From Paludibacteraceae bacterium (GTDB taxonomy: Bacteria > Bacteroidota > Bacteroidia > Bacteroidales > Paludibacteraceae): a stretch of 24,000 nt of DNA. The DNA lies in NCBI GenBank assembly GCA_017480285.1, contig JAFVAX010000094.1:29229-53228 (forward strand). The letters run 5' to 3'. This document shows, one piece after another, positions 1-16,736 of this stretch (the first letter of the stretch is position 1; every line of letters starts with the position of its first letter). The position numbers and the translations under genes are program-made. The notes beneath the pieces are model-generated. The model was not told the DNA's origin, did no database searches, and saw only the letters and a list, made by a program, of their open reading frames with translations.

Positions 1-2
1 CG

Positions 3-230
3 GACCCTGAGATTGTTTTTGTTGCCTTGGGGTTGAAGAAAATGTTAGTTTTTGGTAGATCTAAAAATAATGAAACCATATTAGCATGGTGTCCTCACTG
101 CAAAAAAACGATGTCGTTGGAAGAGGCTATACAGAAAAAATGCCCACATTGCAATCATAAAATCTCATCACATATTGAAGTTATCAAAAAAAGGAAATTT
201 GAATGGATATTTAATGTTGAGAAAGTATAA
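3..230 (+). CDS. Small zinc-ribbon protein, or the C-terminal end of a larger protein running off the left edge (first ATG at 42)
   Basis: The frame is open from nt 3 (DPEIVFVALGLKK...). The track start at 27 is TTG. It contains CPHC-13aa-CPHC. The CPxC..SLE(E/D) segment resembles the C-terminus of the next ORF. Confidence 0.35.
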   Translation, partial: DPEIVFVALGLKKMLVFGRSKNNETILAWCPHCKKTMSLEEAIQKKCPHCNHKISSHIEVIKKRKFEWIFNVEKV

Positions 231-302
231 TTAATGGTGCATTCGGACTTGGATTTGAGTTGTTTTTTGATACTAATATATTCTATCAAGGAGGTATTTA
301 TA

Positions 303-917
303 ATGGATATTAAACAAGAAAATTTGATTTCATCAGTAGGGCTGAGATTTATAACAGGTCGGAAATTGCAACTACAAACAATCGCTGACCACATAGGCAT
401 AACATTAAGTGATTGTGCTGTTGTATTGATGTTTTTAATACTGATTCTATTTGTGTTCGTACAGATAGTTGAGGCATTTGAAAAATCAACAGCTTGGCTG
501 AATCAAGATTTGTGCTTTGGGATAATATACAAAATGAGTTATATTTCATTTATAGTTTTAGAAGTTTATCGGCATACTGAATTTCAAAAATTATATGGTA
601 AAAAGAAAGCCTTTGTTCATAATGGGAAGATATACAATACAATCAGATTGAAACATATCGGAGTTCCTATTCTTTTAAGTATTGTTTCACGATTTTCATA
701 TAGTTACTACAGAATAAACACAAAGTTTTATCAGATAGGTCAGAACAATGAAGGTGAAATTCTGATTAGATGTCCTGAATGCGGACAGTGTTATTCACTT
801 GAGGATTTTGTCAATTTTATCAAACCCGCATTAACAGAAAAGAACATATTTCGCAGAAACAATTTTCCTGACCATTGTCAATTTTGTAAAGGGAAAGTAA
901 TTGTTTTATGTCATTGA
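303..917 (+). CDS. Membrane protein with a C-terminal zinc ribbon; possible weak N-terminal HTH
   Basis: ATG at 303 is preceded by aggagg. Hydrophobic segments are present (VVLMFLILILFVFVQIV, ISFIVLEVY, IGVPILLSIV). The C-terminus reads IRCPECGQCYSLEDF...DHCQFCKGKV. The N-terminal VGLRFITGRKLQLQTIADHIGITLSD is only loosely XRE-HTH-like. Confidence 0.5.
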   Translation: MDIKQENLISSVGLRFITGRKLQLQTIADHIGITLSDCAVVLMFLILILFVFVQIVEAFEKSTAWLNQDLCFGIIYKMSYISFIVLEVYRHTEFQKLYGKKKAFVHNGKIYNTIRLKHIGVPILLSIVSRFSYSYYRINTKFYQIGQNNEGEILIRCPECGQCYSLEDFVNFIKPALTEKNIFRRNNFPDHCQFCKGKVIVLCH

Positions 918-924
918 TTTTTAT

Positions 925-1665
925 ATGAACAGACTACTTGTAAAATACAGATTATTGTGTTATAGTTGTGTTATATACCTATTAATCTGTCTTTCCACAA
1001 TTTTCAGGTTTTATTTAGAAGGGAAATTCCCGGTTATAAATTTTTTATCATTACCCTATAATTCTGCACCGTTAAGTATAAACACACAGCCAACGATGAG
1101 TGGTCTGATAAATGTTTATAATGATAGCCTTAACCAAGTCTCCCCTAAATATCAGCCGTTTAATTATATAGTTTTTGTTCCGGATTCGAATTTGACAAAC
1201 ATTAAAATCAAACGGGTTGATGAATACGCTTGTTATAAAAATACCTTATATCTCCAAGTTGAATTGTCAAACGATTCTTCAATTTGGTTGCGATTTCTTC
1301 CTATGGTAACCATCAACAACCTACAAATAGAATGTTTAGTAGAGAAAATCACCTCAAATGACTTTAAGTATTCCTTCAAATATAAATTCAAACAACTATA
1401 TTTCATAGAAAAAATAGTCTATAAATACATTTTTTGCGAGAATACTGCCGTGTTCCATTACTCAATCCGTCTGTTCGTTCTATTTTTATGCTTACTCTTT
1501 CCTGTGTTTTTTATAATGCACATTTTTTTAATATCAATTTTTATCCAACTTTTCAAACGAGTTAATTACGAAAAAAACATTTTTTATAAGATTTTGTATT
1601 TTATCGCACCTTTTTCCTTTGAAATATGCTATTGTATAATAGAGTATTTTTGGGGATTTGTATAA
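925..1665 (+). CDS. Hypothetical membrane protein (N-terminal TM, C-terminal multi-TM)
   Basis: ATG at 925; the track start at 901 is TTG. It is an AT-rich ORF with hydrophobic N- and C-termini. Its last ~27 codons lie inside the duplicated module 1586-1780, so the 3' end may be incidental read-through. Confidence 0.4.
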   Translation: MNRLLVKYRLLCYSCVIYLLICLSTIFRFYLEGKFPVINFLSLPYNSAPLSINTQPTMSGLINVYNDSLNQVSPKYQPFNYIVFVPDSNLTNIKIKRVDEYACYKNTLYLQVELSNDSSIWLRFLPMVTINNLQIECLVEKITSNDFKYSFKYKFKQLYFIEKIVYKYIFCENTAVFHYSIRLFVLFLCLLFPVFFIMHIFLISIFIQLFKRVNYEKNIFYKILYFIAPFSFEICYCIIEYFWGFV

Positions 1666-1780
1666 TTTATTGCTGACTATTAAAAACCACATAAAAAATA
1701 TATCTATGCAACGAATTTTGTTTCTATTAATGTTTGTATTCAAAATGTGTATTACCTTAGCCGATGAGTTTGAAGTCGAA
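1586..1780 (+). repeat. Copy 1 of a 195-bp promoter/leader/signal-peptide module
   Basis: It aligns without gaps to 6785-6979 at a constant offset of 5199 bp. The first ~75 bp have about 3 mismatches. The ATG and signal-peptide codons are conserved. Confidence 0.85.
1618..1652 (+). promoter_or_regulatory. Candidate Bacteroidota promoter inside module copy 1
   Basis: TTTG at 1618-1621 and TAttTTTG at 1645-1652. The spacer is 23 nt, longer than the usual 19-21. A TATAAT also sits at 1636-1641. The block is essentially identical in copy 2. Confidence 0.35.
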
Positions 1781-2734
1781 CAGCATCCGATTACATTAGA
1801 CTTTCCTAACTCAATAGATACGATTTCAGCATTACCGCAGAAGTTTATTTCCGATAAGAACTTGGAAGATACCTGTATTTGGAATTTTTCAGACTTTAAC
1901 ACAGATACAACTGAAACATATTTTTATCTGACACCATTGTCCCCTGCAGATATTGTCTTTACACGCAATAGACAGCATTCATACTACAAAATAATCAACG
2001 ACACTCTTTTCAGAACTGGCTACGAAACATCCCAAAACAAGGTTTGCTTTGCAAACAAAGAGCCTGTTTTTGCATTGACTATGGTTGGTGACAGTCTGCA
2101 AGGCAACTTCAATGGAAAAGGAGAATTCGGAGGGGTTGTAACTTTGTCGCTGCACGGAACAGCAAAGACAAAAATATGTGCAACAGGAAGGCTACTGTTG
2201 CCTGATTATGAAACAGACAGCGTCTTGATGGTAACACGCCATCGTATTATTAGCGAAACTTCACAGCCCGGACGGAATATTCTTGAAAAATCACAATACT
2301 GGATCAAGCCGCCATCGTATTTCCCCATTGTGGAAAACACCTTGACACAGGTCATCGAACAAAATGATACATTGCAATATACCCAAACATACTATTATCA
2401 TCAAACAAGTTTGACCGAATCAAACAGAATTTCGGACAGTCTTACTATTGACAGTATTATTGCCTCAATTGATTCCATTTATACGGATGCCTCTTATCTT
2501 CCAAATCCGGTAATATCACAACTTATAGTTTCATACAGGCTGACACAATCCGCCGAAATAGGTTTTTCAATGTTTAACAGCAATGGTTTTCTGATGTACT
2601 CAACAAACAATATCCTTCAAGAGGCAGGCTGTTACAGCTTTCAAATTGATATGTCTTCCTATCCAACGGGAGGATATGTTTTATATGTGAATGTGAATGA
2701 CCTAGTTTTATCCACACCAATACTCAAACAATAG
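1706..2734 (+). CDS. Secreted protein with a T9SS type A C-terminal sorting domain
   Basis: ATG at 1706 gives the signal peptide MQRILFLLMFVFKMCITLA/DEF; the track start at 1658 is TTG. The C-terminal ~80 aa (YLPNPVISQLIVSYRL..IGFSMFNSNGFLMYS..YSFQIDMSSYPTGGYVLYVNVND..) fit the Por/T9SS CTD pattern (PNP..l.i, i.D..G, L..G.Y). Confidence 0.7.
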   Translation: MQRILFLLMFVFKMCITLADEFEVEQHPITLDFPNSIDTISALPQKFISDKNLEDTCIWNFSDFNTDTTETYFYLTPLSPADIVFTRNRQHSYYKIINDTLFRTGYETSQNKVCFANKEPVFALTMVGDSLQGNFNGKGEFGGVVTLSLHGTAKTKICATGRLLLPDYETDSVLMVTRHRIISETSQPGRNILEKSQYWIKPPSYFPIVENTLTQVIEQNDTLQYTQTYYYHQTSLTESNRISDSLTIDSIIASIDSIYTDASYLPNPVISQLIVSYRLTQSAEIGFSMFNSNGFLMYSTNNILQEAGCYSFQIDMSSYPTGGYVLYVNVNDLVLSTPILKQ

Positions 2735-2771: not shown

Positions 2772-3057
2772 ATGTACATTTGCAAACTTATATTGCCTAT
2801 TGTTTTATTGTTTGCTTTCACATATATTAAAGGTCAAATCATTATCAACCAAGTTCTGTACGACACACCGCTGAATGAAGAGATTAACAAGCCTCGGCGA
2901 ATTTATCGAGCTTTACAACATATCTGACACAACAAATTCACTACCGACCCAGACAGAAAAATTTGCAAAATTACATATAATTTGCTAAATTTGTGCGATA
3001 CAATACAAGTTTACGAATGGCAACAGGATTGAATACACATACGATGCAACAGGCAAA
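2772..3057 (+). pseudogene. Collapsed gene: signal peptide and lamin-tail-like start joined to a YD-repeat tail, disrupted by a stop and frameshifts
   Basis: - ATG at 2772 gives MYICKLILPIVLLFAFTYIKGQIIINQVLYDTPLNEE..., ending at TGA 2925-2927.
- An alternative frame reads GEFIELYNISDTT (LTD-like).
- From 2928 the frame reads ..DPDRKICKITYNLLNLCDTIQ.
- One extra base near 3010 shifts to FTNGNRIEYTYDATGK, which is in frame with ORF 3058. Confidence 0.55.
2952..3000 (+). repeat. 49-bp repeat (YD-tail segment DRKI.KITYNLLNLCD), copy 1
   Basis: 47/49 identical to 7861-7909. Confidence 0.85.
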
Positions 3058-4218
3058 ATGATAACCATTAAATACATTATCAAACTTGAGTCAGAACTAT
3101 ATCCGAACATTGATACTCTATCACATCAGTCAGACAACATACGGACTTTCACTAAACATTATAGAAACAATATAGAATATTACCAAACTGACAGCATAAA
3201 CACAAGATATATTGTCCACAGCACTGAAGGCTATACTACATTTAATCAAACAGGCAATCAGATAATCAACTACGAATACAACTACTATCATAAAGACCGT
3301 ATGGGCAATAATCTTGCCGTATATAATGCCACACTTGATTCTATAACCCAACGAACTTTTTATTATCCCTCAGGTGTACCGATGAGCATAAGCACAAACA
3401 GAAGCGAACAACCATACAAATACAGCGGCAAACAATTTGAGCAAATGAACGGCTATGATGCTTACAAATATGAGTTCCGTGATTATTATGCAACCACTGC
3501 CCGCTTCACTACCCCCGACCCGCTTGCCGACCGCACCCCACACAAATCTCCATACGCTTATGCAAACAACAATTTTATAAATGAAACGGATTTATATGGG
3601 TTGTTTGGTGATAGTTTTGTAAATAATTTTAGTTTACCAACTTTGGGCGTAACTTATATTTATGGAGATGGTTCTATAATTGCTCATGAAGAATGTGATG
3701 ATCATCGTGTTTTTATGTTTGACAGTGAAACCGGAGAGTGGAATTTTATCGGATTTGAAGTTTATGATAATGAAGGTAATATTGTATGTTATAGTGGATA
3801 TGACTTGAATGATTTTCATATTAAACCACCTAAAAAATACGACCAACCATACGGAGAAACATTTACTGGAGGGATGGACTACGGTTCTCAAGCTACCTCA
3901 AAATTTTGGGGAGGGTTGAATGATTTAGGGGTATATATGCAATATCCTTTTAGTTCAGGAATCAATATGTGGGGAGATATTATCCTTCGATTAAAGGGTA
4001 TAATGAATATTTTTGATAGTCAGAAAAGTCCACAAGAAACAAATAATAAAATACAAACATATCAGAATGATACTAACCACTATCAAATAATCATAAGAAA
4101 TAGATATCATAAGTATGGAGTTAAAACAATAAATAATGTTCCATATACTCAATGGTTTGATGATAATGGTAATTTAATTCATGCTGGTGATACTTTTTTT
4201 AATCGAACAATATTATAA
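3058..4218 (+). CDS. 5'-truncated RHS repeat-associated core plus variable C-terminal toxin domain (CT1)
   Basis: YD/RHS tail and core motifs are present: YHKDRMGNNLAVYN, YYPSGVPMS, QPYKYSGKQFE, YEFRDYYATTARFTTPDPLADRTPHKSPYAYANNNFINETDLYGL. They end at nt 3603. CT1 (3604-4218, ~205 aa) has no motif I recognise. The ATG at 3058 is internal to the ancestral frame. Confidence 0.7.
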   Translation: MITIKYIIKLESELYPNIDTLSHQSDNIRTFTKHYRNNIEYYQTDSINTRYIVHSTEGYTTFNQTGNQIINYEYNYYHKDRMGNNLAVYNATLDSITQRTFYYPSGVPMSISTNRSEQPYKYSGKQFEQMNGYDAYKYEFRDYYATTARFTTPDPLADRTPHKSPYAYANNNFINETDLYGLFGDSFVNNFSLPTLGVTYIYGDGSIIAHEECDDHRVFMFDSETGEWNFIGFEVYDNEGNIVCYSGYDLNDFHIKPPKKYDQPYGETFTGGMDYGSQATSKFWGGLNDLGVYMQYPFSSGINMWGDIILRLKGIMNIFDSQKSPQETNNKIQTYQNDTNHYQIIIRNRYHKYGVKTINNVPYTQWFDDNGNLIHAGDTFFNRTIL

Positions 4219-4233
4219 TACTATTAACATTCC

Positions 4234-4515
4234 ATGAAAAAGAAAACAATAATATCAATAACATTAGATTGTCTGATTTGGCTAAGTATCTTGGTTTCGT
4301 TCATACTGCTCATTCGGAAAAGGTATTATGAAAAAATCTGCCTTGAAATTTTAACCTATGATAGCTTATTGTTAAGAGAGTTCTACGAAAATGACAGCCT
4401 GAAAGCTCAATACAAAATAAATATAATATCTTTTGAGATTGATGGAACTGAATATTATAAAAACGGGGAAATCAGTTCAAGTGGCAAATATAATTTGATA
4501 TTACAAGATGAATAA
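4234..4515 (+). CDS. Small N-terminally membrane-anchored protein; immunity candidate for CT1
   Basis: It starts 16 nt after the CT1 stop. There is an N-terminal TM (IISITLDCLIWLSILVSFILLI). The stop overlaps the next start (ATGAATAA, 4508-4515). Confidence 0.5.
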   Translation: MKKKTIISITLDCLIWLSILVSFILLIRKRYYEKICLEILTYDSLLLREFYENDSLKAQYKINIISFEIDGTEYYKNGEISSSGKYNLILQDE

Positions 4516-5182
4516 AAAATCTGTCAAAAAATATATTATAATTTCTTTTAACCTGATAAGTGGTATTGCATTTATTATTTATATAATTTACCTGTATTTT
4601 TATTTTAATGGTACTTCTTTATCTTTTGTAAAGAATTTTGAAAATGAACTTGTTGCTCAAACAAAGTATTATCCTTGGAGCAATACTATGATAATAGAAA
4701 AATACTATCACAACACCAAGTATCAAGATATTACTATCAAATCTTCGGACAATATTACCATTGAACAAATAGGCTGTTCGTTTTCAAAATATGAAAAGAA
4801 TCTATACAAAATCGAACAAACAAAACCTGATTCGTCTGACATTGTTCAAAACAATGACAAATACAACGCATACGTTTATCTTGATGGGGAAAAAATATCT
4901 ACCGGTAATAAGATCAGGGCACTTAAAAGAAATACTCAATACAAAATATATACATATTGGGAAAATATCAGTCATTCTGAATATGAAGTTTTATTTTCAA
5001 ATTCAAATACCAATAATATTTATACTTTTGAAATACTTGGTAATACTGAAGATGAAGTAGGAGTGTGCATTTTTGAAACTCCCGAGGAACCTTGTTTTTT
5101 TCAAATTATTTATTTATACAAATATATTTCAAATAATCAAAACAAAGGAATAATTAAGAATTTTAATTTTTATATTGAATAG
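4508..5182 (+). CDS. N-terminally membrane-anchored protein; second immunity candidate for CT1
   Basis: It overlaps the preceding ORF by 8 nt, consistent with translational coupling. There is an N-terminal TM (YIIISFNLISGIAFIIYIIYLYFYF). The AT-rich composition matches the cassette. Confidence 0.55.
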   Translation: MNKKSVKKYIIISFNLISGIAFIIYIIYLYFYFNGTSLSFVKNFENELVAQTKYYPWSNTMIIEKYYHNTKYQDITIKSSDNITIEQIGCSFSKYEKNLYKIEQTKPDSSDIVQNNDKYNAYVYLDGEKISTGNKIRALKRNTQYKIYTYWENISHSEYEVLFSNSNTNNIYTFEILGNTEDEVGVCIFETPEEPCFFQIIYLYKYISNNQNKGIIKNFNFYIE

Positions 5183-5206
5183 CATAATTATCCGTCAGGT
5201 TTACCG

Positions 5207-6106
5207 ATGAGTCTTAGTACCAACAAAAGCGAACAACCATACAAATACAACGGCAAAAGATTTGAGCAAATGAACGGCTATGATGCTTATAAATATGAGT
5301 TTCGTGATTATTACCCCACAATAGCCCGTTTCACCACCCCCGACCCACTTGCCGACCACACCCCACACAAATCACCCTACGCTTATGCAAACAACAACTT
5401 TGTAAATGAAACGGATGTGCTTGGATTGTTTGGAAACACTAATGTTAAAATATCGACTCCAGTTTTTTCTTGGGCAGCAATAGATAGAAATGGTATTTTA
5501 ATAGGTTTCGGAGATGATTATGGAGACGATAAAGTTTATTTGGTGGATGATGATTGGGATGGGACATACATTGGTTTATCAAATTATAATCCAATTGGAT
5601 ATGAATGTATGAATCAAAATGAATATAAACTTGGATATCCAATATATTATAAAATAAAATTCATAATGCCACCAGATAAGTTTAGTTCCTTATTACCACA
5701 AGAAAGTGAGACATTGATGTTTGGTAATAAACCGGTTTTACTTGATAATGACATCATTAAAAGTCAGGAGTTTTGGGATATCACATCTACAACTTTTGCA
5801 CTTTTGCATCATTATTACATAAACTTAAATGAATTAAAATTAAATAAGATATCTTATTTAATAGGTATAGGAGAATTAGCCACAAATGTGTATAATTATA
5901 CTAAAGAAGGTTTTTCGGTTGATAATGCTATTTCTACACTTTCAATTGTTAGTAGCTTTTGTTGTGTTGAAGGAGTTTTCTTTGGATTATATCTAAATAT
6001 GAGTTATTTTGTTGTCAAGAAAAGTAGTCAAAGTATTATAGACTTTAATAATTATTATGAGAACTATAATACTTGGTATAATTTATGGGAATTCGGTGAT
6101 TTCTAA
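5207..6106 (+). CDS. Orphan RHS core tail plus variable C-terminal toxin domain (CT2)
   Basis: - Homology to the core (HNYPSGLPMSLSTNKSEQPYKYNGK...NETDVLGL) starts at 5183, one codon after the TAG of the previous ORF and in the same frame.
- The first ATG is at 5207.
- The core ends at 5428.
- CT2 (5429-6106) is unrelated to CT1 over most of its length.
- CT2 has a hydrophobic stretch at aa 241-270 (nt 5927-6016). Confidence 0.7.
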   Translation: MSLSTNKSEQPYKYNGKRFEQMNGYDAYKYEFRDYYPTIARFTTPDPLADHTPHKSPYAYANNNFVNETDVLGLFGNTNVKISTPVFSWAAIDRNGILIGFGDDYGDDKVYLVDDDWDGTYIGLSNYNPIGYECMNQNEYKLGYPIYYKIKFIMPPDKFSSLLPQESETLMFGNKPVLLDNDIIKSQEFWDITSTTFALLHHYYINLNELKLNKISYLIGIGELATNVYNYTKEGFSVDNAISTLSIVSSFCCVEGVFFGLYLNMSYFVVKKSSQSIIDFNNYYENYNTWYNLWEFGDF

Positions 6107-6119
6107 ATACTATAATAGT

Positions 6120-6617
6120 ATGTTGTTCATATTTACGGATCAAAAGAAAAAGTCAAGTATGCTCGTAAAAGAGTTACTCCCTTGCATATTAGGTCCTGTT
6201 ATTATTATTGCAACAACATATTTTATCATTAATGATTTAAAAGCATATATTTTTATTATTCTTTCTGTTTTTCCGATAATCCTTATTCAATGCATCATAA
6301 TTGCTTATACAATACACAAATACTGGGAATGGGATAAAAATACTATTGTAAAATATAATAGCGATAGTTGTATGATAGAATACAAAAATCCAAATATGTC
6401 CCCAAACACAATATACTTTAATACCAAAGACATTGATTATTGGTATAGAATAAATTTAGCATTAACTGTTTCTGATTTATACTATTCTGAACTACATATA
6501 AATCAAAAAAAAATAATTAAAATATCAAGTTTTATAGATTTGAGTGTGATAGAAGATGAATTTAAAAAACAAAAGGAGATAGATAACCGATTCTCATTTA
6601 ATATCTTATTGCATTGA
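6120..6617 (+). CDS. Polytopic membrane protein; immunity candidate for CT2
   Basis: ATG at 6120 lies 14 nt after the CT2 stop. The track start at 6057 overlaps CT2, and ATG at 6159 is also possible. There are two clear TM segments (LLPCILGPVIIIATTYFII; YIFIILSVFPIILIQCIIIAYTI). Confidence 0.55.
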   Translation: MLFIFTDQKKKSSMLVKELLPCILGPVIIIATTYFIINDLKAYIFIILSVFPIILIQCIIIAYTIHKYWEWDKNTIVKYNSDSCMIEYKNPNMSPNTIYFNTKDIDYWYRINLALTVSDLYYSELHINQKKIIKISSFIDLSVIEDEFKKQKEIDNRFSFNILLH

Positions 6618-6644
6618 AATAAGTTCCAATTATTAGAAACTTTT

Positions 6645-6778
6645 GGGGCAATAATCTTGCCGTATATAACGCCACGCGAGACTCCGTAACACAACGAACT
6701 TTTTATTATCCGTCAGGTTTACCGATGAGTCTTAGTACCAACAAAAGCGAACAACCATACAAATACAGCGGCAAATAA
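6645..6778 (+). pseudogene. RHS core stub (third copy), truncated by a stop
   Basis: It translates as GNNLAVYNATRDSVTQRTFYYPSGLPMSLSTNKSEQPYKYSGK*. The 5' part resembles 3303-3370. The segment 6705-6775 is 70/71 identical to 5187-5257. Confidence 0.75.
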
Positions 6779-6784
6779 TTTTTA

Positions 6785-6979
6785 ATAAGATTTTGTATTT
6801 CATAGCACCTTTTTCATTTGAAATATGCTATTGTATAATAGAGTATTTTTGGGGATTTGTTTAAACAACTATTTATAAGTAACAATAATATACATAATTT
6901 ATCTATGCAGCGGATTTTGTTTCTTTTAATATCTGTACTTCAAGTAATCATTTCATTTGCCGATGAATTTGAAGTTGAC
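6785..6979 (+). repeat. Copy 2 of the 195-bp promoter/leader/signal-peptide module
   Basis: Gap-free alignment to 1586-1780. It starts about 7 nt after the stop that truncates the RHS stub. Confidence 0.85.
6817..6851 (+). promoter_or_regulatory. Candidate promoter inside module copy 2
   Basis: It has the same TTTG ... TAttTTTG block as 1618-1652, with a 23-nt spacer. Confidence 0.35.
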
Positions 6980-7723
6980 AACTTTACGGGAGAAATAAAA
7001 GGGCAAGTAAAACAAGTTACTATATCCCTTTCGCTCTCACAACCAACAGCAAACAATGGAGTATCAATGTTTTACGGCTCTAATCAAACAACATACGACA
7101 ATTTAATTGTCATATACTACGATACTCTTGGCAGAATTGTAGAAAAAGACAATTATGTTGAAGTTGGTGTTGCTTATATTGACTTGTATGAGTATTATGA
7201 ACATGGATATATAGTAAGAAATGTTGATAAAACCGGCAATTATACCAACCATGTGAAATATGTCTTTGCTGATTCCGGCATAATACACAAAGAACTCGTA
7301 TACGAAGGTGATAGTCTATTGCAGGCTGATTCTATGTTTTACAATTATCAAAATCTTTTAGTTGGGAAGTTCTCTTACTCAATCAAAAAGCAACAATGGG
7401 AAGTAAAATATACTTGCAAATACGACTCTTTATCAAGGCTTATAGGTGTTAGAAGAAACGATAGTTCCAAATCAGGATTTAATGTTGTTTATGATGAAAA
7501 TGGTAATTATGTCCGGCAGATTATAAACAATGGTAAAATAATAGACAAAGAAACATATACATTTGACAAGAACGGCAATTTAACAAAGATACGATCCAAT
7601 CAAATAAAATACACCTACTCTAAATTTGACAATTATGGGAATTGGACTAAATGCCTTCAGGAAATGCGTACTGAAATCGGCTGGATGGGAGTAGAATATA
7701 ACAGACAAATAGAATATTATTAA
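6905..7723 (+). CDS. Secreted protein with YD-like repeats
   Basis: ATG at 6905 gives the signal peptide MQRILFLLISVLQVIISFA/DEF; the track start at 6857 is TTG. Repeats are present: YDTLGRIV, YDSLSRLIGV, YDENGNYV, FDKNGNLTKI, FDNYGNWTK. There is no T9SS CTD. Confidence 0.65.
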   Translation: MQRILFLLISVLQVIISFADEFEVDNFTGEIKGQVKQVTISLSLSQPTANNGVSMFYGSNQTTYDNLIVIYYDTLGRIVEKDNYVEVGVAYIDLYEYYEHGYIVRNVDKTGNYTNHVKYVFADSGIIHKELVYEGDSLLQADSMFYNYQNLLVGKFSYSIKKQQWEVKYTCKYDSLSRLIGVRRNDSSKSGFNVVYDENGNYVRQIINNGKIIDKETYTFDKNGNLTKIRSNQIKYTYSKFDNYGNWTKCLQEMRTEIGWMGVEYNRQIEYY

Positions 7724-7735
7724 GGATTTGAATAG

Positions 7736-8041
7736 ATGGTACAAATAATACAAAAACAATCAGTCTGTTTGTTAATATTATTACTTGTCTGTTGCAGGGT
7801 AATGCAAACGAGCAGATTGAGATGGTTTATGACCAAAATGGCAATTTAATTAAAGATTTTGACAGAAAAATTTGCTAAATCACATATAATTTGCTAAATT
7901 TGTGCGATAGTGTTCAATTCCTCTTTCACAACAATCAAACAGTATAATTACATTTACAAAACATTACAGGAACAATACAGAGTATTACCAAACAGACAGC
8001 CTGACAACAAGGCACAGAGTGAATAACCAAGAAGGCTATAA
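7736..8041 (+). pseudogene. Second collapsed gene: short signal-peptide-like start plus a YD-tail fragment with an in-frame stop
   Basis: - ATG at 7736 gives MVQIIQKQSVCLLILLLVCC..
- Another frame reads GNANEQIEMVYDQNGNLIKDFDRKIC*ITYNLLNLCDSVQF.
- Further on it reads ITFTKHYRNNTEYYQTDSLTTRHRVNNQEGY, homologous to aa 30-59 of ORF 3058.
- Homology stops at 8040, one base before the ATG at 8042. Confidence 0.5.
7861..7909 (+). repeat. 49-bp repeat, copy 2
   Basis: 47/49 identical to 2952-3000. Confidence 0.85.
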
Positions 8042-10918
8042 ATGAAAAGATTATATATACTTATACTTTTATTTTTTGGAGCATTTTACCTGTTTGGTCA
8101 GGTAGATAATCTATTAAAATTGCACGATGTATCTGTTATTCCCAACACAGGGCAGATGCAGTGTGCAATCAAATTAGCGCATCTAAAAGACCCTGATTTT
8201 GATATACCTATTTATATATCCTATACAAGTGATGGCTTTCGACCTTTAACATATTCAGGTATTGTTGGCAAGAATTGGTCTTTATATTTAGAAGGCTCAA
8301 TATCAAGACAAATAATAGGTCTTGCAGATGATTATGCAAACAATGACTACGGTGAAGGCATTGCTCGTCAGGGTTTCTTGGAAATGCTCCGTCAGAAAGA
8401 TTCAAGTTATTTTTATTCGCAATACAATACAGTTAATGACTTGTATGAGCATCAAGAAGTTTTTCGTTCTTTTTTAGATGCAAGCAGCGATATTTATACT
8501 TTTTCAGCAAACGGACTTTCCGGAACTTTTGTTATCGGTTGGGATGGCAAAGCAAAAATAATAACCGGTGATTTTGTACGGGTTGATTTAGATAGTTTGA
8601 CAATTCAGGAGATACACCAATTGCCGACAAACAATCTATTTGACATATTGAAAGTACCTATAAGTTCCAAGATTCGACTGACCGACATGAACGGATACAA
8701 ATATGTTTTTGGCGGTAATGACAATGCTCTTGAATATACTTACGATTATCCTGATTTTTCCGAGTTGAACTATTCACAACCATTACCTGTAATAACAGCG
8801 TGGCATCTTGTTGAAATCATCGCACCCAACGATAGGCGTATCCGCTTCCACTATAATGAACAAAATGTGTCATCTTATGATTATATAGAAGACGGCATAG
8901 GCTGTTCTTATCATTTCAACTACAATAATGTTTTGTCATTTAATTCTGTTGAAACTCCTTATCTAAATTTTCAAGAAGTGCCTGAAGACGATTTTTATTT
9001 AGGCAAGGATAGTACTTGGGGCATAATCAATCATCAGAAATTGCAGAAAACGACACTTTTGGATTCCATTTCGACGAGCGATAATAGTTTTTCTATTTAC
9101 CTAAACTATCTAAACGACAGCGATTATCTCTTTCTCAGACAACCGATGAGAACTATACCTTTACCTTCTACTTTCAATGTTAGACAAAAGAAACCGTTTT
9201 TAGAAAAAATAAAAGTACAATCCGTGTCAAATAACATAGCCGAATGGAATCTTCTGTATAATACAATCCGGATAGGAAACAAGCATATACCGCGACATTA
9301 TCTTTCTTCGTGCAAAACAAATGATAACATAGGATTTTCATTTGAATATGATTTTGATGATTTATTGGGAACTGAGAGTATTGATACACTCTCTAATATG
9401 GATGCATACGGCTATATCTGTAATGATACTTTGAGTAGGTTTGGTTCATTAAAAAAAGTGAGAGATATGTTAGGAGGTATAACATCCTTCTCTTATCAAC
9501 CGACTAAAATTGATAGTATTAGGATATTCTTAAAAAACAATAATTCTGTATATTCTATTACAAGACAAACAACAAAAAATCTTATTCATTCTCTTGTTAT
9601 TAAGGATATAGAAGTTAGGGACATGAATGGCGAAAAATATTTGAAAAAGTCGTATTCCTATGAATACAATCCATATAAGCCAAGCCCCTTATTGTTCTCT
9701 CCCAAAAATCCTACTGACAGTATATATATTAACCGCAGACATAGTTATGGTACTTTGGATATTGATTATGCAGTATTGCAAGATACTTCCGTTTCCGAGC
9801 CAATTTACACATTGAAAGGCTATTTGAACACCCAACCGACACAAAATACAGTTCATTATAGTAAAGTAGAAGAAAGTATTTATAACAATGGTGCGACACA
9901 ACAGACCGGCATCAATCTCTATTTTTATGATACAAAAACTGATAGTATAGAATTTTCTTTCATTTCAAACGAGCATTTCACGGAAGCGTATAGCATATTA
10001 TCTCAATCAAAAATAAGGAACAGACTTTATGCAATTGAAAATTACGATAGGCAGGAAACTTTATGCAAGCGCACAACATATAAATACTCTCCAACCTTAA
10101 CCAATGATTTTAGCCTGAATCTGTCAAATTTTGTTTGCAAGATTTATTATTCTCAAAACCTGCAAATAGAAAAAGGTATTAAAGAGTTTTATGTTAGTGG
10201 AAATGTGTTAAACAAGTATGAATATCAATATGACTCATTAAGACGAGTTATACGAATTGACCATACTAACAATCTACAACATTCTTTTACAACTTTTACT
10301 TACCCCGACAACTATTTCACTTCCAATTTATTTGGAAACAATGAAGTTCTTGATGGTATAAGACTTTTAACCTATCAGAATCGCATCGGCTTACCTGTAG
10401 AAACTGCCGGCGGACGAATCAAAAACAATGTGGAATATATTACATCAGCAACTTTATCGATCCCTAAAAGGTATGGTAATTACGGGAATCCTAATGCCTA
10501 TTCGTATGTTGCACCTTATATGATGCTTAATTTGAACATCAATGAACCAATTGCTGATTTTCAGCCTTTTATGACAGATATAAACAATATCCGTTTTGAT
10601 CAACGATACGATACTCTGTATGTGTATTCTTACAATCGATATTTACGACCGATAGAAATAATAAAAAAGAGCGAACCAACAAAACAACTAACTTGGGATA
10701 ACAAAAATTTGAATATTATTTCAGAAAGTATTGGGAATAGGATCACATCCCAAATATGGAATCCTTATGTTGGCATTAAATCACAAACAGATACACGAGG
10801 CAATACAGTATATTATCGCTACAACCAATTCGGACAAGTTGTGGAAACATACCGAATTAGAAACGGGAAGAAAGAAGTGTTGAATATCTGTGAATATAAT
10901 TATCCCCGGATTAAATAA
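8042..10918 (+). CDS. Large secreted RHS/YD-repeat family protein lacking an RHS core or toxin tip
   Basis: - 958-aa uninterrupted ORF.
- Signal peptide MKRLYILILLFFGAFYLFGQ.
- The N-terminal IYISYTSDGFRPLTYSGIVGKNWSLYLEGSISRQIIGLADDY recalls the SpvB/TcB-type N-terminal motif (from memory).
- YD repeats lie near the C-terminus (YQYDSLRRVIRI; TDTRGNTVYYRYNQFGQVVETY).
- There is no PxxxxDPxGL-type core. Confidence 0.8.
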   Translation: MKRLYILILLFFGAFYLFGQVDNLLKLHDVSVIPNTGQMQCAIKLAHLKDPDFDIPIYISYTSDGFRPLTYSGIVGKNWSLYLEGSISRQIIGLADDYANNDYGEGIARQGFLEMLRQKDSSYFYSQYNTVNDLYEHQEVFRSFLDASSDIYTFSANGLSGTFVIGWDGKAKIITGDFVRVDLDSLTIQEIHQLPTNNLFDILKVPISSKIRLTDMNGYKYVFGGNDNALEYTYDYPDFSELNYSQPLPVITAWHLVEIIAPNDRRIRFHYNEQNVSSYDYIEDGIGCSYHFNYNNVLSFNSVETPYLNFQEVPEDDFYLGKDSTWGIINHQKLQKTTLLDSISTSDNSFSIYLNYLNDSDYLFLRQPMRTIPLPSTFNVRQKKPFLEKIKVQSVSNNIAEWNLLYNTIRIGNKHIPRHYLSSCKTNDNIGFSFEYDFDDLLGTESIDTLSNMDAYGYICNDTLSRFGSLKKVRDMLGGITSFSYQPTKIDSIRIFLKNNNSVYSITRQTTKNLIHSLVIKDIEVRDMNGEKYLKKSYSYEYNPYKPSPLLFSPKNPTDSIYINRRHSYGTLDIDYAVLQDTSVSEPIYTLKGYLNTQPTQNTVHYSKVEESIYNNGATQQTGINLYFYDTKTDSIEFSFISNEHFTEAYSILSQSKIRNRLYAIENYDRQETLCKRTTYKYSPTLTNDFSLNLSNFVCKIYYSQNLQIEKGIKEFYVSGNVLNKYEYQYDSLRRVIRIDHTNNLQHSFTTFTYPDNYFTSNLFGNNEVLDGIRLLTYQNRIGLPVETAGGRIKNNVEYITSATLSIPKRYGNYGNPNAYSYVAPYMMLNLNINEPIADFQPFMTDINNIRFDQRYDTLYVYSYNRYLRPIEIIKKSEPTKQLTWDNKNLNIISESIGNRITSQIWNPYVGIKSQTDTRGNTVYYRYNQFGQVVETYRIRNGKKEVLNICEYNYPRIK

Positions 10919-12161: not shown

Positions 12162-13184
12162 TCACGTGATTGACACATTGAGACCTGAGGCAGTGGCAAA
12201 AAGAAAATACCGTTGCATCTGCTCGTCATCAGGCATCGGGTATTTTGACAAAGCACCAATAACACCTTGCGGACGAAAACGAAGTAAACGAACAGGGATA
12301 GCGGTTTGGAGCGCTGCTCTGTCGGAGGTTAGAACCCTTGCATTTAACACTTGGGCAACATTTGTGAGGATATTCTCTACATCGGTTGAAACGGAGAACT
12401 GCTGAGAGGGAAAATTGCTATTAGATTCTGAAACAAGTTGCTTCGCATCGTGGGGCCGTGCAGAATAAGGAGTATCCTCATTCCGACGAAGGTCGGAATC
12501 TCGCTGAAGAGTATCCTCATTCCGACGAAGGTCGGAATCTCGCTGAAGAGTATCCTCTTTCCGACGAAGGTCGGAATCTCGCTGAGGAGTATCCTCTTTC
12601 CGACGAAGGTCGGAATCTCGCTGAGGAATCTGAGATTCTGAAACAAGTTTAGAATGAGGAATTGAGGAATTGCTAAAAGACGGCAGACACACTATTCGCA
12701 CTTCCGTCAGTTTGCCCAACTTTGACAAAAGACGCAAATTATCCTTTACTATATTATCATTGTCTGCACCTGTAAGACGTTTATACACACTACTATCCCA
12801 CGCTTTCACATCAAGCATAACACCATCTGTGAGTTCGAGCAAACGAGGATATAACTGAAACGGGATAGTGCCATTGCTATCAATAAGACAACTGAGACCT
12901 AATGGCTTGATAAGTTCAAACAACTCCTCCACAAACTCCGCTTGCAACATACACTCGCCACCCGAGACGGTTATTCCACGAATGAAAGGTATGCCTTTCT
13001 TCACTTCTTCAGCCACTTCTGTAGCCGACATTTGGCGAACTTCGTTGTTGGAAGTTCTTTCCCAAGTCTCAGGATTATGGCAGTAGGCACAACGGATGTT
13101 GCACCCTTGAAGGAAGATGGCAGTACGATTACCCGGACCATCAACCGTTGATTGAGGTATTATTTTTCTTACATACCCAAGCAC
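12162..13184 (-). CDS. yjjW: Glycyl-radical enzyme activase (YjjW-like radical SAM) carrying a ~97-aa in-frame repeat insertion
   Basis: GTG start. The N-terminus has VDGPGNRTAIFLQGCNIRCAYCHNPETW (CX3CX2C) and ITVSGGE. The C-terminal IPVRLLRFRPQGV resembles the YjjW tail (from memory). Residues ~169-265 are low-complexity, with QRDSDLRR(K/N)EDT(P/L) x4. Confidence 0.85.
   Translation of the reverse strand: MLGYVRKIIPQSTVDGPGNRTAIFLQGCNIRCAYCHNPETWERTSNNEVRQMSATEVAEEVKKGIPFIRGITVSGGECMLQAEFVEELFELIKPLGLSCLIDSNGTIPFQLYPRLLELTDGVMLDVKAWDSSVYKRLTGADNDNIVKDNLRLLSKLGKLTEVRIVCLPSFSNSSIPHSKLVSESQIPQRDSDLRRKEDTPQRDSDLRRKEDTLQRDSDLRRNEDTLQRDSDLRRNEDTPYSARPHDAKQLVSESNSNFPSQQFSVSTDVENILTNVAQVLNARVLTSDRAALQTAIPVRLLRFRPQGVIGALSKYPMPDDEQMQRYFLFATASGLNVSIT
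12424..12660. repeat. Interspersed palindromic repeat element, copy A (inside the activase CDS)
   Basis: It is bounded by direct repeats gattctgaaacaagtt at 12424-12439 and 12634-12649, 210 bp apart. The conserved core is 12428-12463. An internal tandem array follows. The right end, ctgaaacaagtttagaatgagga, parallels the end of copy B. Confidence 0.7.
12470..12625. repeat. Tandem repeat, 4 x 39 bp, each unit containing an 8-bp-stem hairpin
   Basis: The unit is gagtatcctc(a/t)ttccgacgaaggtcggaatctcgctga(a/g). The hairpin is attccgac-gaag-gtcggaat (tttccgac in units 3-4). Units start at 12470, 12509, 12548, and 12587. Confidence 0.95.
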
Positions 13185-14765: not shown

Positions 14766-14928
14766 TTATCCTCATGCTGAACTTGTTTCAGCATCTCTTG
14801 TTTCAGCATCTCTTGTTTCAGCATCTCTTGTCCCAACCCTCATCCTGCACGGCCCCACGATGCGAAGCAACTTGTTTCAGGATCTTTCGGTGAGTATTTT
14901 GAGATCCTGAAATAAATTCAGGATGAGG
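14766..14928. repeat. Interspersed palindromic repeat element, copy B (in the yjjI 5' leader, inverted relative to copy A)
   Basis: It contains the reverse complement of the copy A core (14845-14880). It has hairpins atgctgaa..ttcagcat and atcctgaa-ataaa-ttcaggat, and its own tandem array. Confidence 0.7.
14782..14831. repeat. Tandem repeat, 3.3 x 15 bp (cttgtttcagcatct)
   Basis: Three exact units lie at 14782, 14797, and 14812, followed by a partial unit. Confidence 0.9.
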
Positions 14929-15078: not shown

Positions 15079-15165
<87 letters not shown>

Positions 15166-16647: not shown

Positions 16648-16736
16648 TTTAGTGTGTTATTGCAGTTGATTTCGCGTCTTTTTAGTGTGTTATTGCAGTT
16701 GATTTCGCGTCTTTTTAGTGTGTTATTGCAGTTGAA
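16648..16736. repeat. Tandem repeat, about 2.7 x 33 bp, abutting the ATPase start codon
   Basis: The unit is tttagtgtgttattgcagttgatttcgcgtctt, at 16648, 16681, and 16714 (truncated). The first unit begins 3 nt from the ATG at 16645. Confidence 0.9.

Follow-up and report, generated by a model that had tools for sequence, protein, structure and literature searches.

A probable RHS polymorphic-toxin island with displaced toxin-tip cassettes in a Paludibacteraceae genome

Introduction

How does an array of RHS core segments, each joined to a different C-terminal sequence, come to stand in a genome where no full-length RHS gene seems to precede it? The question is raised by a 24,000-nt stretch of DNA (the window; positions 29,229 to 53,228 of GenBank contig JAFVAX010000094.1) from a Paludibacteraceae bacterium of the order Bacteroidales. 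An initial annotation, made from the letters alone, had read the array as Rhs/YD polymorphic-toxin DNA with displaced orphan modules, each made up of a C-terminal (CT) toxin tip and an immunity gene. We found that the window is very probably part of an RHS polymorphic-toxin island, in which an intact RHS gene, here called gene C, is accompanied by displaced orphan CT-immunity modules. Matches to RHS profile hidden Markov models (HMMs), the intact parent gene, arrays across the family and mosaic identity between copies all uphold the earlier assignment.

A main rhs gene followed by an array of orphan rhs-CT/rhsI cassettes is known from Escherichia coli and Salmonella. The same arrangement has been described in Serratia (PMC10539506). 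The array studied here is a further case of this known layout.

Results

Core copies and the intact upstream gene

The RHS island is about 15 kb long and is bounded by rlmL and ribBA; the window covers its downstream two-thirds. The guanine-cytosine (GC) content is about 30% across the island and rises to about 50% at ribBA, where the island stops. Read from rlmL, the intact gene C, located upstream of the window, is followed by three small membrane-protein open reading frames (ORFs) and accessory gene A. Next come a collapsed second RHS gene that has kept its shell tail, core and tip CT1, two membrane ORFs, and an orphan core joined to tip CT2. One further membrane ORF, a core stub, gene A', an RHS tail fragment and partner gene B complete the order (Table 1).

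Table 1 Coordinates of the island features within the window (ORF, open reading frame; TM, transmembrane; CT, C-terminal toxin tip; LTD, lamin-tail domain; T9SS, type IX secretion system; AF2, AlphaFold2).
Feature	Position	Strand	Description
First candidate immunity ORF after CT0 (I0a), 3' end	1..230	+	217 aa, 2 TM segments and C-terminal CxxC...CxxC zinc ribbon; start upstream of window
Second small membrane ORF after CT0	234..917	+	227 aa, TM segments and C-terminal CxxC...CxxC zinc ribbon
Third small membrane ORF after CT0	901..1665	+	254 aa
Gene A, secreted protein with T9SS C-terminal sorting domain	1658..2734	+	358 aa; Por_Secre_tail E 3.5e-4, below cut-off
N-terminal stub of second, collapsed RHS gene	2772..2951	+	Signal peptide and LTD start; frameshift near codon 43
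Last ~135 RHS shell codons	2952..3360	+	89% identity to L003:8040-8695; first ATG of surviving ORF at 3058
Bacteroidetes-type promoter motif TTTG-N20-TAAATTTG	2962..2993	+	Inside shell tail, 10 nt past deletion junction, 65 nt before ATG 3058
RHS-associated core copy 1	3361..3603	+	Complete, end ETDLYGL/FG; TIGR03696 43.4 bits
CT1 toxin tip	3604..4218	+	~205 aa; without family match; this species and partial homolog in L011
Two candidate immunity ORFs for CT1	4234..5182	+	93 aa and 224 aa, one N-terminal TM segment each
RHS core copy 2 (orphan)	5187..5428	+	5'-truncated at YPSG; TIGR03696 52.2 bits, profile 10-76; first in-frame ATG 5207
CT2 toxin tip	5429..6106	+	~225 aa; conserved beta module, then helical, partly hydrophobic C-terminal half
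Candidate immunity ORF for CT2	6057..6617	+	186 aa, 2 TM segments
Core stub copy 3	6646..6781	+	Shell end and first 27 core positions; cut after YKYSGK
Gene A', secreted protein with YD-like repeats	6857..7723	+	288 aa; upstream region and signal peptide in common with gene A
Two RHS shell-tail fragments	7802..7909 and 7923..8040	+	94-96% identity to gene C; end 1 nt before gene B ATG
Second promoter motif copy	7871..7902	+	In RHS tail fragment, 140 nt before gene B ATG
Gene B, intact signal-peptide protein, predicted RHS-type beta-cocoon fold	8042..10918	+	958 aa; AF2 pLDDT 82.6, pTM 0.85

The window contains two complete or nearly complete copies of the RHS-associated core and one stub. The annotation had placed the same core tail at these three sites, and our repeat search, alignment and translations all match the peptide it quoted. 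The first two copies form a direct repeat of 85% identity over 262 nt (3362-3623 and 5187-5448), while the stub repeats the first copy at 88% over 136 nt (3303-3438 and 6646-6781); a three-way alignment agrees. The reported identity of 70 out of 71 nt between 5187-5257 and 6705-6775 is exact. The third copy is indeed a stub, with its start corrected to 6646 and its end to 6781.

Both full copies score above the curated cut-off of TIGR03696 (Rhs_assc_core; 32.5 bits), the profile that had been proposed as a check. In the ORF at 3058-4218 the match covers aa 102-182 (43.4 bits, E 3.6e-11, profile positions 1-76 of 76), and in the translation of 5183-6103 it covers aa 13-82 (52.2 bits, E 6.6e-14, positions 10-76 of 76). 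PF05593 gave no match on the short core pieces; its matches fall only on the neighbouring long genes.

Each copy is displaced in its own way. Copy 1 belongs to a collapsed gene with a frameshifted N-terminus, copy 2 is 5'-truncated after the preceding stop codon, and copy 3 is a stub that starts further upstream in the shell than copy 2 does. Copy 3 is cut at 6781 by the junction with a second repeat, in which 6773-6978 resembles 1574-1779 (80% over 206 nt). As previously noted, the homology of copy 2 begins one codon after the TAG of the preceding gene and in the same frame (TAG at 5180-5182, CAT AAT, then YPSG). This had been listed as unusual, a point that we do not share: an in-frame start is the expected scar of displacement, with a one-in-three chance of a frame match.

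We examined 10 kb of sequence before the window. Directly after rlmL and in the same orientation lies gene C, an intact RHS gene of 1268 aa (L003:5541-9347) that carries the same core and ends 420 nt before window position 1. The statement that no intact full-length RHS gene stands in front of the array is thus wrong, and the apparent absence is an artefact of the window edge. Gene C encodes a signal peptide, a lamin-tail domain (LTD; PF00932, 53.3 bits), a YD shell, the core and a third tip, CT0. Its core reaches 40.4 bits with TIGR03696 and reads YYPSGMPMSISTNRSEQPYKY...NETDILGLFG. About 820 aa separate the LTD from the core, and PF05593 scores 22.0 bits on this gene, exactly at its cut-off. 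The RHS shell tail can be aligned with 34 full-length relatives.

Comparison with gene C also bears out the claim that the first core copy hangs on a collapsed pseudogene. The stub at 2772-2951 corresponds to about aa 1-60 of gene C: BLASTP aligns aa 1-41 (E 9e-12), after which GEFIELYNISDTT follows in a shifted frame. An internal deletion of about 770 codons then joins the stub at 2952 to shell residue ~834 (DRKICKITYNLLNLCD). From 2952 through the end of the core, the collapsed gene and gene C are 89% identical in DNA. Window copy 1 also has a 1-nt insertion near 3007, and the extra base is absent from L085, a second strain described below.

Toxin tips and candidate immunity genes

The annotation had described everything 3' of GLFG as unrelated between copies. 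For DNA this holds, with similarity ending about 20 nt past GLFG. It very nearly holds for protein as well: CT1 is unrelated to CT2 and CT0 (E 0.5-0.6), while CT0 and CT2 resemble each other weakly over a module of some 50 aa directly behind GLFG (E 0.002), which recurs in many family members.

Relatives bear many different tips. The CT0 family is found at many RHS tips, including those of the full-length proteins P0039 and P0055, with proteins of 932 and 1273 aa among its members. The CT2 family includes the C-terminus of the 1445-aa RHS protein P0020 (E 2.5e-11). For CT1, a word-based protein search returned only CT1 itself, and its protein has no confirmed relative in metagenome contigs; a word-based search with shell tail plus core returned only four proteins. 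Between the window and L085, 15 of the changes found in 111 codons of CT1 are synonymous and 8 non-synonymous, where a ratio of about 1:3 is expected without selection. This indicates purifying selection on CT1, as judged from two strains' sequences.

Small AT-rich membrane-protein ORFs were said to follow each tip, and all six small ORFs behind the tips indeed have at least one predicted transmembrane (TM) segment, in DNA of 25-28% GC. Homologs of the 217-aa ORF stand behind CT0-family tips at two related loci, L008 and L034. Since the candidate immunity proteins are all membrane proteins and the CT2-family tips end in long, partly hydrophobic helices, the toxins are likely to target membranes, a suggestion that we put forward with reserve. 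As a separate observation, TM segments plus a zinc ribbon in the first two ORFs after CT0 (window 1-917; L003:9344-9997) are an odd make-up for an immunity protein.

Core ending and layout across relatives

The second feature listed as unusual was a core that ends in TD(L/V)xGL. The ending here is NETD(L/V/I)xGL in place of the canonical PxxxxDPxGL, with Asp, Gly and Leu kept and Pro replaced. An exhaustive HMMER search with core plus CT2 identified 6096 relatives at E<=1e-3. The core end could be parsed in 114 of the hits; there, the conserved Asp is followed by P in 39, W in 36, Y in 16, F in 8, L in 5, I in 4, A in 3, V in 2 and R in 1. The nearest ~70 are almost all non-Pro, with ID(W/Y/F/L)MGL endings among which IDWMGL is the most frequent; the ETD(L/V/I)xGL ending is therefore normal for a large Bacteroidales subfamily and is no oddity in its own clade. 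The putative catalytic aspartates D57 and D81, 24 residues apart, are invariant in a 20-sequence alignment.

We then scanned one genome per species with a core alignment that included diverse cores, which gave 77 loci. Bacteroidota supplied every one of them, and almost all belong to Bacteroidales (Paludibacteraceae, Bacteroides, Prevotella, Dysgonomonas and Tannerella). Core copies were counted by HMM search within +-10 kb in 79 sequences, namely these loci, the window island and one related strain. Two to seven copies were present in 35 of the 79, typically with a full-length gene in front and, behind it, orphans that each bear a tip of some 200 aa. The highest counts were seven (L083) and six (Dysgonomonas sp. 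PF1-14), and L008 and L011 have the same order of full-length gene and then orphans as the window island. About half of the full-length genes among the relatives have the signal peptide plus LTD N-terminus. A spare tip/immunity array behind an intact RHS gene is thus common in gut and rumen Bacteroidales and not surprising.

Strain variation and mosaic identity

Three strains of the species were compared: the window strain, L085 from another sample, and L004 (JGI 3300011008). L085 has the same stub, junction and CT1 as the window, recovered from an independent sample. Its sequence equals window copy 1 at both ends and gene C in the middle; there, its shell tail is 96-98% identical to gene C where window copy 1 reaches only 73-75%.

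In L004 the island has shrunk to about 0.8 kb between rlmL and ribBA (L004:4448-5255), with flanks 97% identical to the window strain. The remnant consists of RHS codons 1-8, the shell tail, part of the core, 185 nt, the last 84 nt of gene B, and ribBA. Over 180 nt it does not differ from window copy 1 at all; elsewhere it matches gene C. L004 also shows the ancestral order for the species, with C next to rlmL and B next to ribBA.

Because identity is mosaic between copies and between strains, the copies appear still to exchange sequence, and the pattern indicates ongoing gene conversion between the repeated tails, so far as alignments can tell. The locus is a well-mapped example of RHS island rearrangement, with internal collapse, orphan displacement, apparent mosaic gene conversion and complete loss in a sister strain. 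The array by itself matters little, its odd features being a window edge and a clade-typical motif.

Promoter motif and shared deletion endpoint

The Bacteroidetes promoter consensus is TTTG-N18-22-TAnnTTTG. The window contains 8 matches against 1.16 expected. Five coincide with real gene starts, including one that precedes a tRNA, and two, both perfect, fall within the coding sequence of RHS tail blocks. Gene C (L003:8050-8081), L004 and a few Prevotellaceae relatives contain this block too. The RHS tail fragment that carries the second motif copy ends in a stop codon overlapped by the gene B ATG (ATGA). More tentatively, a promoter in the shell tail could let displaced cassettes, and here gene B, be transcribed on their own. 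The motif may partly be a by-product of coding, through the codons of the peptide YNLLNL.

The deletion in window copy 1 (at codon ~60) and the independent one in L004 (at codon 8) have different 5' ends. On the 3' side both stop at exactly the same base, the G of GACAGAAAAATTTGC, which lies 10 nt upstream of the -33 element (window 2952, L004:4472, L003:8040). No microhomology was seen at either junction. Candidate explanations for the common endpoint are selection for keeping the promoter, common descent masked by gene conversion, and chance. A universal hot spot for orphan starts at the promoter block was ruled out, as the 5' ends of orphans in relatives vary between profile positions 100 and 375. 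A cassette arm homogenised across species after GACAG was likewise rejected, as there is no identity step at residue 834. An exact 25-mer of the tail block had no match in a metagenome contig collection that does not hold this lineage (L004, a JGI contig, was also unmatched).

Proposed mechanism and competing explanations

If the island works as an RHS polymorphic-toxin locus, gene C would be exported by Sec and its shell would enclose the tip, which the two invariant aspartates would cleave from the chain after GL. The freed tip would then be delivered to a competitor, while the small membrane ORFs would serve as immunity proteins at the membrane or in the periplasm and protect the producer. 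Recombination between the tail/core repeats of ~250-650 nt could transfer CT1 or CT2, along with the matching immunity gene, to the intact gene, and the same homologous recombination could instead delete the intervening DNA. The orphans may also preserve immunity against the toxins of neighbours.

Several observations weigh against this reading. It had been proposed to look for CT1 or CT2 at the tips of full-length RHS genes; the CT2 family does occur there (P0020), and within this species no recombinant with either tip on a full-length gene was found. The partial CT1 homolog in L011 sits on an orphan, and both strains that carry CT1 itself have it on the collapsed gene alone. Tip and immunity gene were seen to covary in a single case, CT0 with the 217-aa ORF. 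Pfam and NCBIfam searches with CT0, CT1, CT2 and all the small ORFs gave nothing above cut-off, which for CT1 and CT2 counts here, and the AlphaFold2 (AF2) model of CT2 is poor (predicted local distance difference test, pLDDT, 51). No PAAR, VgrG or further type VI secretion system (T6SS) gene was called within ~20 kb. The window is a section of a 67.9-kb metagenome contig (ENA ERZ27256838), hence of a metagenome assembly. The tail promoter is a motif match only, encoded by a conserved peptide and found in few relatives. Finally, parts of the array appear to be decaying, as L085 has a TAG inside the LYGL of its CT1-copy core and window copy 1 is frameshifted.

The last point leads to an unlikely, though not negligible, alternative: that the array is inert debris of duplicated RHS loci under deletion, without a role in tip switching, immunity or expression. 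The frameshifts in both the stub and the tail of copy 1, the stop codon that interrupts the core in the L085 copy, and the reduction of copy 3 to a 136-nt stub all fit this. So do the loss of the whole island from a related strain without apparent harm and the scattered orphan 5' ends of the relatives, which random truncation predicts. Debris would, however, hardly leave CT1, CT2 and the six small ORFs open over 93-386 codons in DNA of 25-36% GC. The roughly 2:1 excess of synonymous changes in CT1 argues against it too, as do the retention of the CT0 and CT2 families at RHS tips across genomes and the mosaic identity of copies that still seem to exchange sequence.

We consider it very unlikely that short cytoplasmic products made from the tail promoter (a 386-aa tail-core-CT1 and a 299-aa core-CT2 protein) act inside the producer together with a membrane partner, in the manner of an addiction or abortive-infection system. 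The promoter motif ahead of ATG 3058 and the in-frame ATG 5207, which opens the 299-aa ORF, would allow such products, and the internal Met is conserved in gene C and in P0002. In L004, however, this Met is Ile, and there is no promoter motif upstream of copy 2. The products would have no signal peptide and would miss most of the shell. The same tip families are found on full-length secreted RHS proteins; nor is there a link to phage-defence genes. It is barely conceivable that assembly has merged RHS alleles of different strains into an artificial tandem layout. The assembly is of the k141 MEGAHIT type and the region is repetitive, but the repeats are just 85-89% identical and the sole near-identical stretch, of 71 nt, is shorter than k=141. 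The NCBI metagenome-assembled genome (MAG) protein P0001 comes from a contig of 67,833 nt, independent samples repeat both the stub-junction-tail-CT1 arrangement (L085) and the B-ribBA junction (L002), and closed or long contigs of relatives have the same layout.

Comparison with known systems

The polymorphic-toxin island that we favour resembles the Rhs arrays of enterobacteria. In both, a full-length gene is followed by same-orientation, 5'-truncated core fragments with a different tip and small gene each; core homology provides the substrate for recombination, the modules are AT-rich, and the island varies between strains. Unlike those arrays, the locus here has no link to PAAR, VgrG or a T6SS, and its N-terminus is a Sec signal peptide plus LTD. 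The core ends in ETDxxGL rather than DPxGL, the candidate immunity proteins are all membrane proteins, and one of the "orphans" is a second full gene collapsed by internal deletion. The locus also includes a separate partner gene, B, and gene A with its type IX secretion system (T9SS) tail. A T6SS Rhs effector was rejected as an identification on account of this N-terminus and of the absence of any T6SS Pfam family among the called genes within ~20 kb.

WapA of Bacillus subtilis, a wall-associated protein of a Gram-positive bacterium, is a Sec-exported RHS toxin. Streptococcus suis WapA provides another example (PMC12704120). As in WapA, a signal peptide replaces the T6SS adaptor, and an RHS shell, a polymorphic tip and an adjacent immunity gene are present; here, in contrast, an outer membrane must also be crossed.

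Clusters of the acquired interbacterial defence type (AID and rAID-1) are likewise arrays of orphan immunity genes from gut Bacteroidales; their GC content is skewed and they show signs of horizontal transfer. The rAID-1 clusters are defined by a XerD-family recombinase and repetitive intergenic sequences (bioRxiv 10.1101/471110). An rAID-1 or integron-like reading was dismissed: no recombinase is found among the called genes, there are no intergenic repeats, the repeats present are coding pieces of tail and core, and, in contrast to rAID-1, toxin tips are retained.

Genes A, A' and B

Homologs of gene A were matched by tblastn at 24 related loci, at many of which they precede B and C, two genes before the full-length RHS gene. 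Gene A' has in common with gene A the 206-nt repeat described above, and the bodies of the two genes differ. Since homologs of A' lie downstream of RHS tips in L010, L019 and L028, A' may be an immunity-type or accessory protein.

Gene B is not a truncated RHS gene, an idea that was rejected because B is an intact member of a family mostly 944-1020 aa long. Its homologs number 35 proteins of 944-1162 aa and one fragment of 604 aa. In 28 of 34 cases among relatives B lies directly upstream of the full-length RHS gene C, usually with an A homolog before it. This A-B-C order is seen in L008, L009, L011, L012, L028, L039, L046 and others, including cultured Bacteroides; in the window genome it is permuted to C...A...B.

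The best matches of the B model in the PDB are TcB subunits of Tc toxins (4igl, 5kis, 4o9x and 6l7i; E down to 3e-21, TMq 0.45-0.47). The match is at the level of topology only (root-mean-square deviation ~15 A), and single-chain T6SS Rhs proteins reach TMq values of 0.10-0.15. No sequence-level match of B to TcB or SpvB was found, and PDB sequence searches with B, a B profile and C gave nothing significant. Like the TcB-TcC cocoon of Yersinia entomophaga (4igl) and Photorhabdus (4o9x), the A-B-C loci would have two adjacent genes of RHS-type beta-cocoon (B by model), the second of which encodes the aspartyl protease of the RHS core and a hypervariable tip of ~200 aa. They differ in that B has 958 aa compared with about 1450 aa for TcB, and in that C exceeds TcC in length and brings a signal peptide and LTD of its own. 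Bacterial targets are indicated, moreover, by the orphan tip arrays and the membrane immunity genes. No large TcA-like gene was found in the island or at related loci, and a Tc toxin in the strict sense was rejected for want of TcA. A census of Tc toxins places TcC in Proteobacteria (96.4%) and Firmicutes (3.2%), and "Bacteroid" does not occur in its text (PMC7861908). We found no relevant description in the literature of an RHS-T9SS or TcB/TcC system in Bacteroidetes, nor of the A-B-C module.

A wider joint reading of these features is possible, although we hold it to be doubtful. Bacteroidales RHS loci might be two-component and Tc-like, with B and C forming the cocoon, a T9SS-sorted protein in the place of TcA, and bacteria as the target. 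The shell tail would carry its own promoter, so that each displaced cassette and gene B would be self-expressing, and the repeated deletions ending at the same base before the promoter would reflect a specific process or strong selection. Should B and C indeed make up one split cocoon, the RHS toxins of gut and rumen would include a large class closer to Tc toxins than to T6SS effectors, which would raise the question of how such toxins leave the cell. Gene B with the A-B-C order and the tail promoter are more useful leads than the array itself.

Other observations

Outside the island, the minus-strand radical-SAM gene at 12162-13184 contains a 39-nt unit repeated 4.1 times with 97% identity (12468-12627), which encodes PQRDSDLRRKEDT peptide repeats. 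BLAST suggested related, partly diverged sequence in the intergenic region upstream of the island (L003 ~3032-3274). Perfect intergenic tandem repeats are located at 16648-16735 (33 nt x2.7) and 14782-14831 (15 nt x3.3), beside AAA_14/DUF4143 and YjjI-like genes. A tRNA was found at 15079-15165.

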